This document shows positions 13,673-24,836 of a DNA stretch of 61,912 bases, one piece after another. A model generated the notes under the pieces. The model was not told the DNA's origin and searched no databases. It saw nothing but the letters and a program-made list of their open reading frames with translations. This DNA is from a virus: the IMG/VR virus record IMGVR_UViG_3300045988_115461. One strand, given 5' to 3'. The translations under genes were made by a program, and so were the position numbers. How positions within the stretch are numbered: position 1 is the stretch's first letter; every line of letters begins with the position of its first letter.

Positions 13673-14563
13673 ATGAAAAACTACTTTCCACATGATAGTG
13701 ATGCAAGAAGCGATGATAAAATTATCGCTTTACGTATAAAGCATAAATGGGAAGGATACGGGTTATACTGGGCGTTGATAGAAAAATTAAGAGAAAGCAA
13801 AAATTATACTCTAAAAGCCGATTATAATGTTTTGGCTTTTGATTTACGTGCTGATGCCGCAATTCTAAAAAGTGTAATAAATGACTTCGGGTTATTTGCC
13901 TTCACCAATAATGGTGAGTGTTTCTACTCCGAATCTCTAAATACACGTATGCAGCCATTGGACGAAAAAAGAGCAAAACTTTCTGATGCCGGTAAACGAG
14001 GAAATGAAAAGAGGTGGAAAAATGGTTCGAATAGGTCTGCGTCTCAATCGCCACCTGATAATAATTCTTTCGCCACCCAATCGCCACCCGATAGCCACCC
14101 AATCGCCCAACTATCGCAAGAAGAGATTAGAGAAGAAGTAGATAATAGTAAACCTAAAGAAACCTCTACTAGCGTAGAGGCAAAGAAAGCCGAACAAGCA
14201 AAGAAACTTGCCGCAGCTAAAGCCGCTACGCTCAAACGGAGGGATGAATTTTATAATTCTCTGGTTCCTTATGTGGAACGATACGGGAAGGAAATGATCC
14301 GGGCTTTCTTTGATTACTGGTCTGAACTCAATAAGTCAGAAACTAAGATGAGATTTGAAACGAATAAAACATGGGAGGTCGCAAAAAGACTTGCCACATG
14401 GTTTAATAAGGAAAAATTCAATGGAAAATCAAGTAGCACGATACCAAAGGCCGGATTTGGATCTTTTACCAAGTCTACCGGAAACAAAGCCGCAAGCCGT
14501 GAAACTGTGGGCCAATTCGCCAGAGCCGTACTGGAACAGTATAAATCCAAAGACGGCGATTGA
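13673..14563 (+). CDS. DUF4373 (Lin1244/Lin1753-like) replication organiser-type protein
   Basis: The N-terminus MKNYFPHDSDARSDDKIIALRIKHKWEGYGLYWALIEKL is characteristic of this family. Confidence 0.65.
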   Translation: MKNYFPHDSDARSDDKIIALRIKHKWEGYGLYWALIEKLRESKNYTLKADYNVLAFDLRADAAILKSVINDFGLFAFTNNGECFYSESLNTRMQPLDEKRAKLSDAGKRGNEKRWKNGSNRSASQSPPDNNSFATQSPPDSHPIAQLSQEEIREEVDNSKPKETSTSVEAKKAEQAKKLAAAKAATLKRRDEFYNSLVPYVERYGKEMIRAFFDYWSELNKSETKMRFETNKTWEVAKRLATWFNKEKFNGKSSSTIPKAGFGSFTKSTGNKAASRETVGQFARAVLEQYKSKDGD

Positions 14564-15050
14564 TGTCTTTAAATCGATCTCGCCTTCTATCGTGGAATTA
14601 TCGATGACTTATGATGACATCTTCGTAAACTCGCTAATGTACACATGGTTTGAGCAATTCGTGAATTTCTACTCAACTAATGGAACGATGGACCCCGTTC
14701 AAATTAAAGATACTATAGATCTTGTTCGTGAAGAATACCCACATTATAAACCGGAGGACTTCAAGCTCTTTTTCAAAATGGCCAAGAAAGGTTATTTCGG
14801 ACAAGTCTTTGGCCGTATAGACGGCGAGGTCATAATGAATTGGATGGCAAAGTATGACATCCATAGGGACACTCAGGCGCAAAACGAGGCTATTAAGGCA
14901 GCTGATGCTTTTCGTCCTCGTGTCCAAGCGAAGGAAAGCATCGGACTAACTTGGGATGAATATCAAAAATGGAAGAAAAATCAAAAAAGCAATGGAAAAA
15001 GTAAACGAATTAAGGGATGTCCCTTTGGGCCATTTGGTCAAGATCGGTAG
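14421..15050 (+). CDS. Hypothetical protein (start uncertain: 14421 or 14604)
   Basis: ORF 14355..15050. ATG 14421 would overlap the upstream gene by 143 nt; ATG 14604 gives no overlap. Confidence 0.45.
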   Translation: MENQVARYQRPDLDLLPSLPETKPQAVKLWANSPEPYWNSINPKTAIDVFKSISPSIVELSMTYDDIFVNSLMYTWFEQFVNFYSTNGTMDPVQIKDTIDLVREEYPHYKPEDFKLFFKMAKKGYFGQVFGRIDGEVIMNWMAKYDIHRDTQAQNEAIKAADAFRPRVQAKESIGLTWDEYQKWKKNQKSNGKSKRIKGCPFGPFGQDR

Positions 15051-15231
15051 ATTATATTATGCTGCGATAGAGTTTCTACCGCAAGGAAATACTAAAGGAA
15101 ACGTTTGTGTAGGATGCTCCTTTCGTGATGATGGAGGAGGTATAGAAGAGTGCAGGTACTCCAGCGCTTGCATGGCGCACAAGAGGCCAGATCACGAGAG
15201 TGTGGTGTTTGCCAAAACCAAGGAGATATGA
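14992..15231 (+). CDS. Small Cys-rich protein
   Basis: CVGCSF...ECRYSSACMAHKR. Its stop overlaps the dcm start (ATGA at 15228). Confidence 0.4.
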   Translation: MEKVNELRDVPLGHLVKIGRLYYAAIEFLPQGNTKGNVCVGCSFRDDGGGIEECRYSSACMAHKRPDHESVVFAKTKEI

Positions 15232-16301
15232 CACATGGATCATTATTTTCTGGCGTGGGCGGATTTGACCTTGCCGCCGAATGGATGGGATGGGAGAACC
15301 TGTTCCATTGCGAGATTAACGAGTGGTGCCAAAAGGTACTGCGGTTTCATTTCCCAAAAAGCATTCAATATGAAGATATTACAAGAACTGATTTCACTCC
15401 GTGGAGAGGGAAGGTTGACGTACTCACAGGAGGGTTTCCTTGCCAGCCATTTTCAACGGCAGGAAAGCGAAGGGGAGCGGAAGATGACCGTTATCTCTGG
15501 CCGGAAATGCTTCGGGCAATACGGGAGATACGACCCGCTTGGGTCATTGGTGAGAACGTTGCTGGAATCACCAGCATGGTACAACCCGGCAGTGAGGTTA
15601 CGGTGGAAAGTCAAGCCTCTTTGTTTGAAACGTCTGACAAGGAAACGCTACTCGAGCAAGAATACGTTATCGAGACCGTCTGCCGAGATCTTGAGCGTGA
15701 GGGATATTCCGTCCAGCCGATTCTTATTCCAGCTTGCGGTGTCGGAGCGCCACACAAGAGGTACAGGGTATGGTTCATTGCTTCCGACCGTTCAGACGCA
15801 AGGATTGAAGGTTTGCGACAAAAACGGAAAGACAAGGTTCATGGATGTCTCGTTGCTACCGACACCTACGGCGAGAAGCTACAAAAATGGCTCAAAAATA
15901 ACGGACGGGAGATCGAGGAGGAAAATATCGCAAGGCTGGACAATGGAGTTGAACGATCTTGCTGTATCAGGGCTTTTGCCGACTCCGACAATGAGAGATT
16001 ATCAACCATCGGTATCACCGACAGGATTAGTTCGGAAGAACGGGAAAAGAAGAGACGATGCCTTATGCAATATACCAGTAATGATTGGCCAGCATTGTCA
16101 GCAGAACGATGGAAAGACTTCCCAACTCAACCCCCTGTTTGTCGAAGAAATGATGGGTTACCCTTTGATGTGGACTACCTTGCCATTTCTTTCACAAAAT
16201 GGAGACAAGAGTCAATAAAAGCCTATGGAAATGCGATAGTTCCACAAGTAGCATTTGAGATATTCAAGGCGATAGAAACATCAACCTTTCATCATAGTTG
16301 A
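15228..16301 (+). CDS. dcm: DNA (cytosine-5)-methyltransferase
   Basis: Motif I LFSGVGGFD, motif IV GGFPCQPFS, motif VI IGENV, motif VIII GAPHKRYRVWFIA, motif X AYGNAIVPQVA. Confidence 0.9.
   Translation: MTHGSLFSGVGGFDLAAEWMGWENLFHCEINEWCQKVLRFHFPKSIQYEDITRTDFTPWRGKVDVLTGGFPCQPFSTAGKRRGAEDDRYLWPEMLRAIREIRPAWVIGENVAGITSMVQPGSEVTVESQASLFETSDKETLLEQEYVIETVCRDLEREGYSVQPILIPACGVGAPHKRYRVWFIASDRSDARIEGLRQKRKDKVHGCLVATDTYGEKLQKWLKNNGREIEEENIARLDNGVERSCCIRAFADSDNERLSTIGITDRISSEEREKKRRCLMQYTSNDWPALSAERWKDFPTQPPVCRRNDGLPFDVDYLAISFTKWRQESIKAYGNAIVPQVAFEIFKAIETSTFHHS
15484..16218 (+). other. Alternative (+1) frame ORF fully inside dcm, carrying LLPTPTA-type repeats and an LNPLFVEEMMGYP motif
   Basis: The frame is open from 15235 to 16218 (327 codons). 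An internal ATG at 15484 gives MTVISGRKC... It has three LLPT motifs and a C-terminal motif-IX-like string. Confidence 0.35.
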
Positions 16302-16347: not shown

Positions 16348-18855
16348 ATGAAATACATAGATTTTTTAAAAAACAAAATGGCCATTAGCCATAATACTGG
16401 ATTTGAGATAAAAACGGACGAATTGACACCGTCGCTCTATCCTCATGTGAAAGATACCGTTCGTTGGGCGGTAGCCGGTGGTTGCAGAGCTATATTCTCC
16501 AGCTTCGGTATGCAAAAGACAGTCACCCAGCTGGAAATACTCCGGGTAATCCTGAACGATAAAGGAGGCAAGGGGTTGATCGTTTGCCCCAAGCGTGTGG
16601 TAGTCGAGTTCCTGACACAAGCGGAACAACACTTGCACATGAAAGTAACCTATGTACGAACAATGGCTGATGTGATGATATGTCCGACCGATATCATGGT
16701 GACTAACTACGAACGTGTTCGCGACGGTGAAGAAGGGGTTAGGATAGATCCAGCGTATTTTACTGTCACTTCACTGGATGAAGCAAGTGTGCTTCGAGGA
16801 TTCGGGACCAAGACCTATCAAGAGTTCCTTCCCTTGTTCTCGGATGTGCCTTATCGGTTTGTCGCCACGGCCACACCTTCACCTAACAGATACAAAGAAC
16901 TGATACACTATGCCGGCTATCTTGGTGTGATGGACACAGGGCAGGCTCTTACGCGATTCTTTCAGCGTGACAGTACGAAAGCGAATAACTTGACACTTTA
17001 TCCGCATAAGGAAAAGGAGTTTTGGTTGTGGGTATCCACATGGGCTTTGTTCTTAACTAAACCATCTGACTTGGGCTATCCGGATACTGGTTATGAGTTG
17101 CCGGAACTCCGTGTGCATGAAGAGATCGTGAGTGTGGACAATTCTACGGCTGGTACCGACCGTGACGGACAAGTGAAGATGTTCCGTGAGGCTGCTCTAG
17201 GATTGGCAGATGCGGCAAAAGAACGCAGGGACAATATGGAAGAGAAGATTGCCCGTGTGGTGGAAATCATCAACCGCCCAGAAAACAAGGACGACCATTT
17301 TCTTTTGTGGCATGATTTAGAATCTGAACGAATAGCCTTATGTAATGCGATTCCAAGCTGTAAGGCCGTATATGGTTCGCAGGATGATGAAGAAGCCGAC
17401 AAGGTGATAGCCGACTTCAAGGACGGTAGGCTGAAATATTTGGCAGCAAAACCGGAGATGCTTGGTGAAGGTCTTAACTTTCAGTATCACTGTCATAAAG
17501 CAATCATGTTCATTGACTACCGTTTCAACGATAAGTTCCAAGCGATAGCCCGTATATATCGCTTTATGCAGCAGCATCCCGTTGATCTCTATCTGGTCTA
17601 TGCCGAAAGCGAGGGTGAAATATTTAAGAGCTTCATGCAGAAATGGGCGCAACACCGGGAAATGGTTTCCAAAATGACCGACATTGTCCGTGAAAACGGT
17701 CTGTTCGGTTTACAGGCCGAGGAAAAGATGATGCGTTGGATGTTTGCCAGTCGGGAAGAGAAATCCGGCAAACTGTGGAAGGCAATCAATAACGACAATG
17801 TCCTTGAATGCCAAAAGATGGGAAGTGACTCTGTGGACCTGATTGTAACCAGCATCCCGTTCTCCAACCACTATGAATATACGCCTACCTATAACGATTT
17901 CGGGCATAATGAGAGTAATGATAAGTTCTTTACACAGATGGATTACCTTACACCGGAGTTAATGCGTATCTTAAAACCGGGTCGGTTAGCCTGTATTCAT
18001 GTGAAAGACCGTGTATTGTTCGGCAACGCCACGGGTGACGGTATGCCAACTATTGATCCATTCAGTGAAATGACAGTATTTCATTACATGAAGCATGGCT
18101 TTCGTTATATGGGCCGTATCACGGTAGACACGGATGTAGTGAGGGAAAATAATCAGACCTATCGTTTGGGCTATACCGAGATGTGCAAGGATGGCTCCAA
18201 GATGGGAATCGGATGCCCTGAATATGTATTGCTTTTTCGCAAGTTGCCTACCGATACCTCCCGTGCTTATGCAGACCAGCCTGTCACGAAGGACAAGAGC
18301 GAATACTCGCTGGCCCGTTGGCAGATCGATGCCCATGCAAGTTGGAAATCCTCCGGCAATTCATTGTTGTCATACGAAGATATGAAAGGTGCCGGAATAG
18401 ATAAGATTCGGCATTTGTTCCGTAACTACGAACGTGAGCATATCTATAACTATGAGGAACATGTGTCGTTCGCAGAAGAGTTAGAGGCATACGGGAAATT
18501 ACCCAAAACATTTATGGCCGTTGATCCTGTAAGTAAAAAAGATTGGATATGGGATGATGTCGTCCGGATGCGTACGCTCAATACGAGGCAGTCACAAAAG
18601 AAGAGACAGAATCATATTTGCCCTCTTCAGTTAGATATCGTTGAAAGGCTGATTGAACGGTATTCAAACAAGGGGGAATTGATATTTGACCCGTTCGGAG
18701 GTATCGGTACCGTTCCTTATTGCGCTGTCAAGTTGGGACGTAAGGGCTTGTCTACCGAATTGAATTATGATTATTGGAAAGACGGACTTACTTATCTACG
18801 GGAAATTGAGATGGAGGTAAGTGCGCCGACATTGTTTGACTTAATAGCGATGTAA
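16348..18855 (+). CDS. SNF2-like helicase fused to an N6A/N4C-type DNA methyltransferase
   Basis: The N-half has SLDEASVLR (DEAx), ATATPSPN and a helicase-C-like region. The C-half has motif IV-like VTSIPFSNHY and motif I DPFGGIGT (beta-class order). Confidence 0.75.
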   Translation: MKYIDFLKNKMAISHNTGFEIKTDELTPSLYPHVKDTVRWAVAGGCRAIFSSFGMQKTVTQLEILRVILNDKGGKGLIVCPKRVVVEFLTQAEQHLHMKVTYVRTMADVMICPTDIMVTNYERVRDGEEGVRIDPAYFTVTSLDEASVLRGFGTKTYQEFLPLFSDVPYRFVATATPSPNRYKELIHYAGYLGVMDTGQALTRFFQRDSTKANNLTLYPHKEKEFWLWVSTWALFLTKPSDLGYPDTGYELPELRVHEEIVSVDNSTAGTDRDGQVKMFREAALGLADAAKERRDNMEEKIARVVEIINRPENKDDHFLLWHDLESERIALCNAIPSCKAVYGSQDDEEADKVIADFKDGRLKYLAAKPEMLGEGLNFQYHCHKAIMFIDYRFNDKFQAIARIYRFMQQHPVDLYLVYAESEGEIFKSFMQKWAQHREMVSKMTDIVRENGLFGLQAEEKMMRWMFASREEKSGKLWKAINNDNVLECQKMGSDSVDLIVTSIPFSNHYEYTPTYNDFGHNESNDKFFTQMDYLTPELMRILKPGRLACIHVKDRVLFGNATGDGMPTIDPFSEMTVFHYMKHGFRYMGRITVDTDVVRENNQTYRLGYTEMCKDGSKMGIGCPEYVLLFRKLPTDTSRAYADQPVTKDKSEYSLARWQIDAHASWKSSGNSLLSYEDMKGAGIDKIRHLFRNYEREHIYNYEEHVSFAEELEAYGKLPKTFMAVDPVSKKDWIWDDVVRMRTLNTRQSQKKRQNHICPLQLDIVERLIERYSNKGELIFDPFGGIGTVPYCAVKLGRKGLSTELNYDYWKDGLTYLREIEMEVSAPTLFDLIAM

Positions 18856-24730: not shown

Positions 24731-24803
24731 CGCGGGTTAGAGCAGTGGTCAGCTCGTCACTTCGACTTGGTGAAGGTCAACGGTTCGATTCCGTTACCCG
24801 CAA
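24731..24803 (+). tRNA. tRNA with an initiator-type scaffold and a non-CAU anticodon loop (UCGACUU; nominal anticodon GAC)
   Basis: A 73-nt cloverleaf folds by hand: acceptor cgcgggt/acccgca with a C1xA72 mismatch, D-arm gagc-agtggtca-gctc, anticodon arm tcact-tcgactt-ggtga, variable loop aggtc, T-arm aacgg-ttcgatt-ccgtt. No CCA is encoded. Confidence 0.75.
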
Positions 24804-24836
24804 CTACTTAGTTATTAATTGAAAAATGACACGATT

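Follow-up and report, generated by a model that had tools for sequence, protein, structure and literature searches.

A phage dcm gene with two overlapping reading frames that probably encodes a heterodimeric C5 cytosine methyltransferase resembling M.EcoHK31I

In monomeric C5 cytosine methyltransferases (C5-MTases), motifs I-VIII and X form the large domain, and the variable region and motif IX form the small domain (PMC3404938). M.EcoHK31I from E. coli (recognition sequence YGGCCR; Lee, Kam and Shaw, 1995) needs two polypeptides, alpha and beta, for its activity. Its beta chain, which bears motif IX, is encoded wholly within the alpha gene but in a different frame, and removal of the beta start codons by changes that are silent in alpha abolished methylation (PMC2836561, PMC3404938). 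Here we describe a dcm gene with a comparable layout in a 61,912-nucleotide stretch of viral DNA (the window; IMG/VR record IMGVR_UViG_3300045988_115461). The initial annotation, made from the letters alone, had noticed two long overlapping reading frames in this gene and had offered three explanations for them: an overprinted second protein, an isoform produced by frameshifting from frame A to frame B and back to A, or alternative initiation at two closely spaced ATGs.

The coordinates of the frames were confirmed, and the gene does carry two ORFs on the same strand, frame A and a +1 ORF contained within it, frame B (Table 1). Frame B is open from 15232 to the TAA at 16216-16218, a span of 328 codons with ATGs at 15235, 15370 and 15484, and the third frame of the gene has 23 stops. 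The span first assigned to frame B thus holds as far as its end at 16218 is concerned, but its opening part, 15235-15369, is open only in this window and contains stops in relatives. The distance from the frame-B stop to motif X, given before as about 10 nt, is 3 nt. Counted from ATG 15370, frame B lies wholly within frame A, as it does in all 243 related loci, and the two frames overlap by about 850 nt, with about 100 codons constrained in both. The analysis confirms that the gene has two coding frames, one for a catalytic chain and one, nested in the +1 frame, predicted to give a second chain with the putative DNA-recognition part that the first lacks.

Table 1. Features of the two reading frames of the dcm gene, with positions in the window.
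Feature	Position	Strand	Remarks
Frame A CDS, alpha-like chain, 357 aa	15228..16301	+	ATG 15228 to TGA 16301; catalytic chain of a C5 cytosine methyltransferase
Frame A motif I, LFSGVGGFD, AdoMet binding	15243..15269	+	Aligns with M.HhaI from residue 16
Frame A motif IV, GGFPCQPFS, catalytic Cys	15429..15455	+	M.HhaI alignment
Frame A motif VI, GENVAG	15549..15566	+	M.HhaI alignment
Frame A motif VIII, APHKRYRVWFIA	15747..15782	+	Selection passes from A to B just downstream
Frame A hydrophilic linker	15783..16184	+	Stop-free, protein sequence unconserved; variable region and motif IX of B are read from the same nucleotides
Frame A motif X, AYGNAIVPQV	16221..16250	+	Aligns to M.HhaI QFGNSVVINV
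Frame B CDS, beta-like chain, 282 aa	15370..16218	+	Best-conserved start ATG 15370 to TAA 16218
Frame B N-terminal region, ERKMTVISGRKC..PLGSLVRTLLES..W..FLFQLAVSERHT	15475..15756	+	Overlaps frame A motifs V-VIII; constrained in both frames
Possible alternative frame B start, MTVISGRK	15484..15486	+	GGGGAG precedes; frame-A synonymous constraint begins here
Frame B variable region, three LLPTP-type units	15775..16005	+	B position 3 most variable
LLPTP unit 1, SLLPTVQTQG	15775-15804	+	Frame B
LLPTP unit 2, SLLPTPTARSYKNG	15850-15891	+	Frame B
LLPTP unit 3, GLLPTPTMRDYQ	15970-16005	+	Frame B
Frame B motif IX, DGKTSQLNPLFVEEMMGYPLMWT	16108..16176	+	Aligns to M.HhaI 268-289 NGKTRKLHPRECARVMGYPDSY

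Frame A matched PF00145 at 141.4 bits in a Pfam profile search (cutoff 22) and TIGR00675 at 113.6 bits (cutoff 100.65). It aligned to M.HhaI with motifs I, IV, VI, VIII and X in place, as had been read from the letters, and the identical protein is recorded as 'DNA (cytosine-5)-methyltransferase 1' on 126 contigs. It has no motif IX of its own, and the C-terminal fragment of frame A alone gave no match to PF00145. Frame A therefore has the composition of an alpha chain of the M.EcoHK31I type (motifs I-VIII and X, without IX) and not that of a single chain with the variable region and motif IX alongside the catalytic motifs, since IX lies in frame B. The linker that separates motif VIII from motif X, taken over 96 genes, has a KD of -1.21, consists to 74% of polar or charged residues, Gly and Pro, and varies in length from 88 to 291 aa.

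Frame B matched phrog_1008 ('DNA methyltransferase', E = 6e-23), and a 282-aa product is called in this frame by gene callers. The threefold motif noticed earlier is present as three LLPTP-type units. Related genes have 1-7 such units, and in all lineages examined these occupy the +1 frame relative to the catalytic motifs. LLPTPxAxDYK may correspond to the 'TL' core of a canonical target-recognition domain (TRD), but a profile built from the last unit together with motif IX found no methyltransferase in the PDB. The proposal that the C-terminal block of frame B resembles motif IX was borne out by two matches, each of them weak taken alone: the sub-alignment with M.HhaI scores 5.5 bits, and a fragment joining motif IX of B to motif X of A matches PF00145 positions 246-323 at 18.8 bits, under the cutoff of 22. 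Entropies at the positions of the block are 0.30/0.42/1.11, with frame-A synonymous identity there reaching 0.96, and in Streptomyces and Megaera genes the block is in phase with motif X. By these alignments the block is a genuine C5-MTase motif IX, carried by the beta-like chain. Structure prediction by AlphaFold gave a pLDDT of 34 for beta (12-sequence alignment) and of 29 for an A-B-A chimera (no alignment), values too low for the models to be informative.

Variability by codon position revealed which frame is under selection in each part of the gene. Within residues 1-60, and again in motif X, variability peaks at position 3 of frame A, and in motif X synonymous identity has returned to baseline. 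Through the variable region and motif IX it peaks at position 3 of frame B, and in the linker stretch position 1 of A, which is position 3 of B, is the most variable at 1.1-1.8 bits. In motifs I-VIII and in X the selected frame is A; in the variable region and motif IX it is B. Upstream of this part, synonymous constraint in frame A climbs from residue ~81. Over motif IV, synonymous sites are at baseline (0.40-0.43), and frame B is therefore unconstrained over that stretch. By contrast, over the N-terminal region of frame B third-base (synonymous) identity is 0.53 versus 0.36-0.37 in the flanks, and the cross-phylum identity of the +1 translation is 0.41 and 0.37 versus 0.31 and 0.30 after permutation (z = 17 and 11.5; controls outside B, z = 0.2 and 1.8). 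Thus, the check for suppressed synonymous variation in homologues that had been suggested found constraint in both frames, extending over about 100 codons.

Permuting the synonymous codons of B leads to an expectation of about 6 stops in frame A within the variable region (probability of none below 0.005 per gene), and synonymous permutation between motifs IV and VIII to about 2 stops in the other frame. Since no stop was observed in those stretches in 102 genes, the openness of the frames goes beyond chance. The earlier impression that frame B does not read like noise is thus upheld by permutation, z scores and codon-position variability.

Related loci (n = 243) comprised 163 found via frame B and 80 selected through frame A alone. 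All 163 of the former have MTase homology in frame B-1, and all 80 of the latter have a +1 ORF matching the frame-B HMM, of at least 210 codons in 78 cases, with the third frame closed. Database homologues of the frame-B translation, which the initial annotation had recommended looking for, do exist: the frame-B profile finds 8825 cluster representatives. The hosts span four phyla (Bacteroidota, Bacillota, Actinomycetota and Pseudomonadota), and the nested arrangement also occurs in Paenibacillus, Streptomyces, B. thuringiensis and Ca. Megaera, in coliphages K1G and N15 and in Salmonella phage SW3.

In many alleles frame B is intact while frame A is broken, by TGA in place of Trp codons, by a TAG inserted in motif I or by frameshifts in the linker, so that a role of beta without alpha is possible. 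In copies interrupted by TGA, the remainder of frame A is otherwise intact. Global recoding of TGA or TAG was rejected as the cause of these interruptions, with neighbouring ORFs unaffected and no suppressor tRNA. Gene calls of frame B alone were dropped as a sign of better coding potential in B because frame A of those contigs is interrupted by the TAG insertion in motif I.

Could frame B be a genuine second protein, overprinted on dcm, whose main role is not that of an MTase subunit but, for example, that of a regulator or an anti-defence factor? We consider this unlikely. In all 243 loci frame B never occurs apart from a C5-MTase frame, it ends in the very motif IX that is missing from frame A, and frame A itself lacks a conserved variable region. 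Frame B found no match in Pfam, NCBIfam or among PDB sequences and its N-terminal ~100 residues have no assigned function, as such a separate protein might, and B is intact in many loci whose frame A has stops or frameshifts, but the TGA-interrupted copies of A are otherwise intact.

How translation of frame B begins bears on the remaining explanations. An ATG occupies the alignment column of 15370 in 99 of 111 genes, in 85 genes it is the earliest ATG within the open span, and the stretch 15235-15369 is free of synonymous constraint, which argues against alternative initiation at 15228/15235. In 8 of 11 Bacillota-type genes the first frame-B start has a Shine-Dalgarno sequence upstream of it, against a background of 0.10 (P = 2e-6, from about four independent lineages). 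With a conserved ATG 15370 and, in the Bacillota-type genes, a Shine-Dalgarno sequence, independent initiation of beta is supported at the level of sequence signals. ATG 15484 was rejected as a universal beta start, an ATG being present within 3 codons in only 76 of the 111 genes.

These start signals, together with about 100 codons of B that are open and constrained upstream of any supposed shift site, count against a single chain made by two programmed frameshifts, +1 past motif VIII and -1 past motif IX, which would yield the order I-VIII, variable region, IX, X. Such a chain would explain why selection follows exactly the pattern A, B, A, and in the A-B-A chimera the spacing of IX to X is canonical compared with M.HhaI and the PF00145 score rises to 146.1 bits versus 141.4 for frame A. 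However, frame A remains stop-free for ~135-290 codons through the B region, which is unneeded under this model, and the return to A precedes motif IX in Streptomyces and Megaera and follows it here. Entropy profiles show no invariant nucleotide block at either junction. Neither a fixed, conserved shift site nor a zero frame free to close was therefore seen in the entropy profiles, the junctions or the openness of A. The M.EcoHK31I precedent consists of two separate polypeptides, and we know of no gene with two efficient frameshifts, which we also count against this model. The chimera was also used to search for single-chain relatives: of the best 120 matches, those read that scored above the frame-A protein itself were mostly A-to-B frameshift fusions that end at the B stop without motif X and have scattered junctions, and a further one, P0286, was frame A throughout, internally duplicated. 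More distant single-chain relatives may exist. The frameshifted isoform of the initial annotation, with A staying open, the N-terminal half of B selected with its own start and junctions that vary by lineage, is thus very improbable.

Finally, that frame B is a non-functional by-product of frame A conservation and codon usage, which could account for part of the similarity between motifs IV and VIII (permuted identity ~0.30), is already contradicted by the selection pattern, in which B is itself the selected frame in the variable region and motif IX, by the 78 of 80 frame-A-selected loci with B open and the third frame closed, and by permutation z scores of 11-17 with flat controls, and it also runs against the conservation of B between Bacteroidota-type and Bacillota-type genes (27-39% identity), so that we give it next to no credence.

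We conclude that the gene probably encodes a heterodimeric C5 cytosine methyltransferase like M.EcoHK31I, in which beta, bearing motif IX, is nested in the alpha gene. Among the three mechanisms proposed at the outset, the best fit is a second protein read from the other frame, although it would not be an unrelated protein but a complementary part of the same enzyme. Alpha would have only a hydrophilic spacer in place of the small domain of a monomeric enzyme, and this spacer would be held stop-free so that translation reaches motif X. Beta would be translated independently from an internal +1 start, with ATG 15370 as the main candidate and possibly 15484 as well, and would supply an N-terminal region of ~100 residues, three LLPTP-type units at the position of the variable region, and motif IX. 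The N-terminal region of beta may be the part that binds alpha, by analogy with M.EcoHK31I. Association of alpha and beta would rebuild the two-domain enzyme, which would then methylate the phage DNA. We infer beta translation, two-chain assembly and target recognition by the LLPTP units. No restriction enzyme gene was found near the methylase gene, which therefore looks like an orphan, protective phage methylase.

The nested design, known before from one E. coli enzyme, M.EcoHK31I, is, as far as homologous sequences tell, present in thousands of phage genes. The beta frame has no Pfam or NCBIfam model and no name in public sources. It is annotated as 'hypothetical protein', 'internal gene' or 'Mte8-like', and no characterisation of 'Mte8' was found in the literature searched. 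Alpha is annotated as a complete Dcm despite having no motif IX and no conserved variable region. Should beta prove necessary for activity, what is predicted from alpha alone about methylation in phages, its specificity and their capacity for anti-restriction is incomplete for thousands of genes. More tentatively, at a little under even odds, M.EcoHK31I could be the only characterised representative of a very large group of phage and prophage C5-MTases that annotation has missed, in which the whole DNA-recognising small domain is a separate +1-frame polypeptide, built from 1-7 LLPTP units in a modular array that may or may not include motif IX. If so, thousands of genes annotated 'Dcm' would encode only one half of the enzyme, specificity could change as beta gains and loses units while alpha stays untouched, and alpha dosage might be tuned separately, for example by UGA-for-Trp readthrough. 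At ~850 nt and across four host phyla, the dual-coding region would rank among the longest and most widely conserved same-strand examples in phages. Naturally split C5-MTases serve as scaffolds for targeted methylation (PMC2836561), and a large natural alpha/beta family would extend this toolbox.

Going by its published description, M.EcoHK31I resembles the gene described here in having a nested beta ORF with several in-frame Met candidates and an N-terminal part before motif IX. It differs in that its TRD is 'predicted' in alpha, a placement not found here, where the whole variable region (1-7 LLPTP-type units) is selected in the beta frame and the alpha linker is unconserved. It also belongs to a restriction-modification pair, whereas this gene appears to be a phage orphan methylase. 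Its chains measure 309 and 176 aa, compared with 357 and 282 aa here.

M.AquI (CYCGRG) is likewise a C5-MTase made from two polypeptides and split around the variable region. However, its alpha chain contains motifs I-VIII as well as a portion of the variable region, and its beta chain the rest together with IX and X, whereas here beta is fully nested and motif X resides in alpha. The M.AquI ORFs are consecutive and overlap only briefly. The multispecific C5-MTases of Bacillus phages (SPR and phi3T type) carry tandem modules, in varying number, between motifs VIII and IX. There the modules belong to a single chain and are TRDs established by experiment, and the LLPTP units are likened to them by layout only. 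With the B block placed between motifs VIII and X of A, the order and spacing of motifs are those of M.HhaI and M.HaeIII, but these enzymes, whose structures are solved, are single chains read in one frame, and their variable regions have no detectable similarity to the LLPTP units. Finally, the gene shares with viral overprinted genes (reviewed in PMC8227390) a long same-strand overlap, selection on both frames and suppression of synonymous change. In a typical overprinted pair the two proteins have unrelated functions and one is evolutionarily young, whereas both frames here would be parts of one ancient enzyme fold, conserved across four host phyla.

The dcm gene carries two overlapping reading frames, as the initial annotation had claimed: frame A, the alpha-like catalytic chain, and frame B, a beta-like chain in the +1 frame; the third frame has 23 stops over this stretch, and translation in the window follows the standard genetic code. 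Separate searches of the two translations, which that annotation had proposed, identified frame A as a C5 cytosine methyltransferase (PF00145, 141 bits; TIGR00675, 114 bits) and matched frame B residues 60-316 to PHROG 1008 ('DNA methyltransferase', E = 6e-23), but gave frame B no match in Pfam, NCBIfam or PDB sequences.

Features of the dcm region and the tRNA gene of the window
Feature	Coordinates	Strand	Description
Lin1244_N-like ORF upstream of dcm	13673-14563	+	296 aa
DUF6633-like ORF upstream of dcm	14355-15050	+	231 aa from TTG start
Frame A (dcm)	15228-16301	+	357 aa, ATG to TGA
Frame B (+1), open span	15232 to TAA 16216-16218	+	328 codons; ATGs at 15235, 15370, 15484
Gene directly downstream of dcm	16348-18855	+	835 aa; SNF2-type helicase (PF00176, PF00271) + N6/N4 DNA methylase (PF01555)
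tRNA-Val (GAC)	24731-24804	+	sole tRNA gene of the 62-kb window

The nested arrangement is widespread. By tblastn, frame B has matches at 41-52% identity in phages of Bacteroides and Porphyromonas, and at about 27% in 48 phages of Paenibacillus larvae. The genes of the window, Paenibacillus phage Diva, BKO1-TP3 and BS-TP4 each have an open +1 frame that reaches from around motif III/IV to just ahead of motif X, and 21-28 stops in the third frame; the +1 frames have in common KMTVTSGRK..PLGSLVRxLLES, LLFRLVPSxRxT, repeated LLPTPxAxD units and QLNPxFVExxMGFPxxWT. A frame-B alignment brought in 159 more loci, and at every one of them methyltransferase homology lies in frame B-1 on the same DNA. 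As a guard against selection bias, 80 loci were gathered via frame A only (41-98% identity): every one has a +1 ORF matching the frame-B HMM, of at least 210 codons in 78, and a third frame open for just 11-132 codons. The same nesting is present in one plasmid each from Streptomyces and Ca. Megaera, in B. thuringiensis plasmid p05, in coliphages K1G and N15 and in Salmonella phage SW3. A frame-B profile matched 8825 cluster representatives (clustering at 50% identity), 3668 of them at E ≤ 1e-10; of the best 120 relatives in the first database search just one had a Pfam domain, and five frame-B proteins checked by record are unnamed in every source.

In a +1 overlap the wobble position of A is position 2 of B, and position 1 of A is position 3 of B. 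Position variability was profiled over 111 unique genes. Through the first 60 residues of A, and again in motif X, variability is highest at A position 3 (1.3-1.6 bits), as in ordinary single coding with A selected; in the overlap with motifs IV-VIII that position is still the most variable, lowered to 0.84-1.30, and A is dominant; from the end of motif VIII to the frame-B stop the most variable position is B position 3 (1.1-1.8 bits), and B is selected. At LNPLFVEEMMGYPL in frame B, B positions 1, 2 and 3 have 0.30, 0.42 and 1.11 bits. Because the most variable position switches segment by segment, the selected reading begins in A for motifs I-VIII, passes to B for the variable region with the IX-like block, and comes back to A for motif X. 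The frame-A stretch between motifs VIII and X (88-291 aa, KD -1.21, 74% polar, charged, Gly or Pro; only about 55 residues in B. thuringiensis) looks like a linker, in which the profile showed no residue-level constraint apart from stop avoidance, since B position 3 varies almost freely across it.

Both frames are maintained across the whole overlap. Permuting the dominant frame's synonymous codons, with its protein and codon usage left exact, produced about six frame-A stops in the B-dominated stretch, the median gene being stop-free in fewer than 1/200 permutations, and, from motif IV to motif VIII, about two stops in frame B (median P of none, 0.057); the observed number was zero in 102/102 genes. 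Suppressed synonymous variation, for which a check had been advised, was found: when Bacteroidota-type genes are compared with Bacillota-type genes, codons for an identical residue have the same third base at a frequency of 0.53 in the overlap and 0.36-0.37 in the A-only flanks. On a fine scale this third-base identity stays at baseline at residues 1-40 and motif IV, increases from about A residue 81, reaches 0.96 over the frame-B IX block and is back at baseline directly past the frame-B stop. Cross-phylum identity of the +1 translation exceeded synonymous permutation in the overlap (0.411 vs 0.312, z = 17, and 0.373 vs 0.295, z = 11.5), z values that are inflated because pairs are not independent; control segments outside B showed no excess (z = 0.2 and 1.8).

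What frame B contributes was read from a chimera, A(1-185)+B(185-321)+A(322-357), aligned to M.HhaI. Frame-B DGKTSQLNPLFVEEMMGYPLMW falls opposite NGKTRKLHPRECARVMGYPDSY (motif IX), and frame-A KAYGNAIV opposite KQFGNSVV (motif X) at canonical spacing. The C-terminal B(IX)+A(X) fragment matches PF00145 positions 246-323 (E = 1.2e-3), and translating those nucleotides in frame A alone gives no match. The initial reading of this block as motif IX is thereby upheld, through matches that are each weak and persuasive only in combination. In Streptomyces and Megaera, near-identical IX blocks (RLSPLFVEWMMGLPPGHVT, RLNPDWVEWLMGYPISWTD) lie in frame A, in phase with motif X, and the LLPTP units remain in the +1 frame; lineages thus differ in the point of return to frame A, with the units constantly +1. 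These units, repeated blocks of the variable region, number 1 to 7 per gene (three in the window). From their position they may correspond to the canonical TRD, a correspondence not seen in a profile search of the PDB.

Frame B is probably expressed from a conserved internal start. ATG 15370 (A codons TAT-GAA) occurs in 99/111 genes, has no earlier ATG within the open span in 85 and is the start chosen by gene callers; ATG 15484, where constraint begins, is in 76/111 only. A start at ATG 15235, one of the explanations first offered, is not supported, positions 15235-15369 being open in the window alone. In Bacillota-type genes the open span starts 0-2 codons ahead of an ATG, and GGAGG, GAGG or GGAG lies at -18 to -4 in 8/11 (within-gene background 0.10, P = 2e-6), a count resting on about four independent lineages. 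We infer that beta would be translated from ATG 15370 and assemble with alpha.

Alleles in which frame A is broken but frame B intact hint at a beta function unrelated to methyltransferase, a reading that leaves aside that beta holds exactly the parts that alpha is without. Such alleles include those of Bacteroidales genomes (loci L102, L104-L110, L114, L115, L117, L120-L125), in which frame A has 2-4 in-frame stops, frame B is intact and there are no frameshifts; 35/37 TGA codons lie exactly at a conserved Trp, in combinations that differ by lineage. The sites correspond to window W19 (15282-15284), W59 (15402-15404) and W325 (16200-16202), the Trp codons followed by A (TGGA). Neighbouring ORFs have no TGA interruption, and the 6-kb loci no suppressor tRNA; leaky UGA-to-Trp readthrough attenuating alpha, or context-specific decay, could be the cause. 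Loci L163-L165, L169, L005 and L007/L174 (~60-98% identity) have a common 6-nt insertion placing TAG in motif I (FSGI*VGG, not FSGVGG; window 15255-15262), and a different 5' end without the window's ATG. Past the insertion their frame A is open (415 codons in L174), and their frame B is intact. Because of this TAG, metagenome gene callers give only the 282-aa frame-B protein there.

A single chain made by double frameshifting agrees with the A/B/A selection pattern and the canonical chimera, yet is unlikely: it explains neither the openness of frame A through the B region, nor the constraint and start signals of the N-terminal half of frame B, nor the variation of the A/B boundaries. No single-chain relative of the canonical kind turned up among the best matches to the chimera; those read that outscored frame A's own protein were mostly A-to-B frameshift fusions ending at the frame-B stop. 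Single-base indels fuse A to B in phase in database proteins P0055, P0115, P0240, P0259, P0167, P0280, P0283, P0284, P0287 and P0380 and at loci L081 and L098, the join falling at many different points (past motif I-III, past motif IV or within the linker). Some fusions occur on several long contigs (P0284 on 7) and in NCBI; motif X is absent from the fused ORFs read, and all but P0280, cut off inside motif IX, reach the frame-B stop. At L058 the dcm homolog is interrupted in its 3' part (about 3300-3800) by an insert that resembles an HNH/AP2-type homing endonuclease, and P0158 has weak HNH_3 and AP2 matches within a frame-B-like protein. That frame B is a by-product of frame A is contradicted by selection on B up to its stop, by the +1 ORF at every frame-A-selected locus and by the excess +1 identity over flat controls.

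Around dcm lie replication-module genes (Lin1244_N, DUF6633) and the fusion of SNF2 helicase with N6_N4 methylase, and none of the genes next to it in the window encodes a restriction enzyme. The close relatives L163-L165 have a 269-aa Dam-type methylase (PF02086) in place of the fusion. As listed, the two upstream ORFs overlap by ~200 nt on the same strand, and the DUF6633-like ORF probably starts later than its TTG. Annotators have recorded the nested ORF twice, each time without explanation: in K1G (GU196277.1 26586-27410) ORF30 inside ORF31 is a 'putative Mte8-like protein', a label for which the literature searched gave no characterisation, and in Diva (KP296791.1 31248-32300) DIVA_50, nested at +1 in dcm (DIVA_49), is the depositors' 'g49 internal gene'. 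In RefSeq both ORFs are called 'DNA methyltransferase'. The same +1 ORF is present, unannotated, in N15 gp58 and in the dcm of Salmonella SW3, and in papers on P. larvae phages two cytosine methyltransferase products appear with the nesting undiscussed.

The two-polypeptide C5 methyltransferases known as of 2012 were M.AquI and M.EcoHK31I only (PMC3404938). M.EcoHK31I needs both chains, with motifs I-VIII, X and the predicted TRD in alpha and motif IX in beta; silent removal of the beta start codons, internal Met included, abolished methylation, and the N-terminal ~42 residues of beta are required to associate with alpha (PMC2836561). We liken the window gene to it by architecture, from published descriptions of M.EcoHK31I: both have a nested beta with motif IX, and motifs I-VIII and X in alpha. 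A difference from M.EcoHK31I is that in the window gene selection acts on the beta frame through the entire variable region. Nested C5 methyltransferases of the M.EcoHK31I type appear to be far more numerous than the searchable literature suggests.
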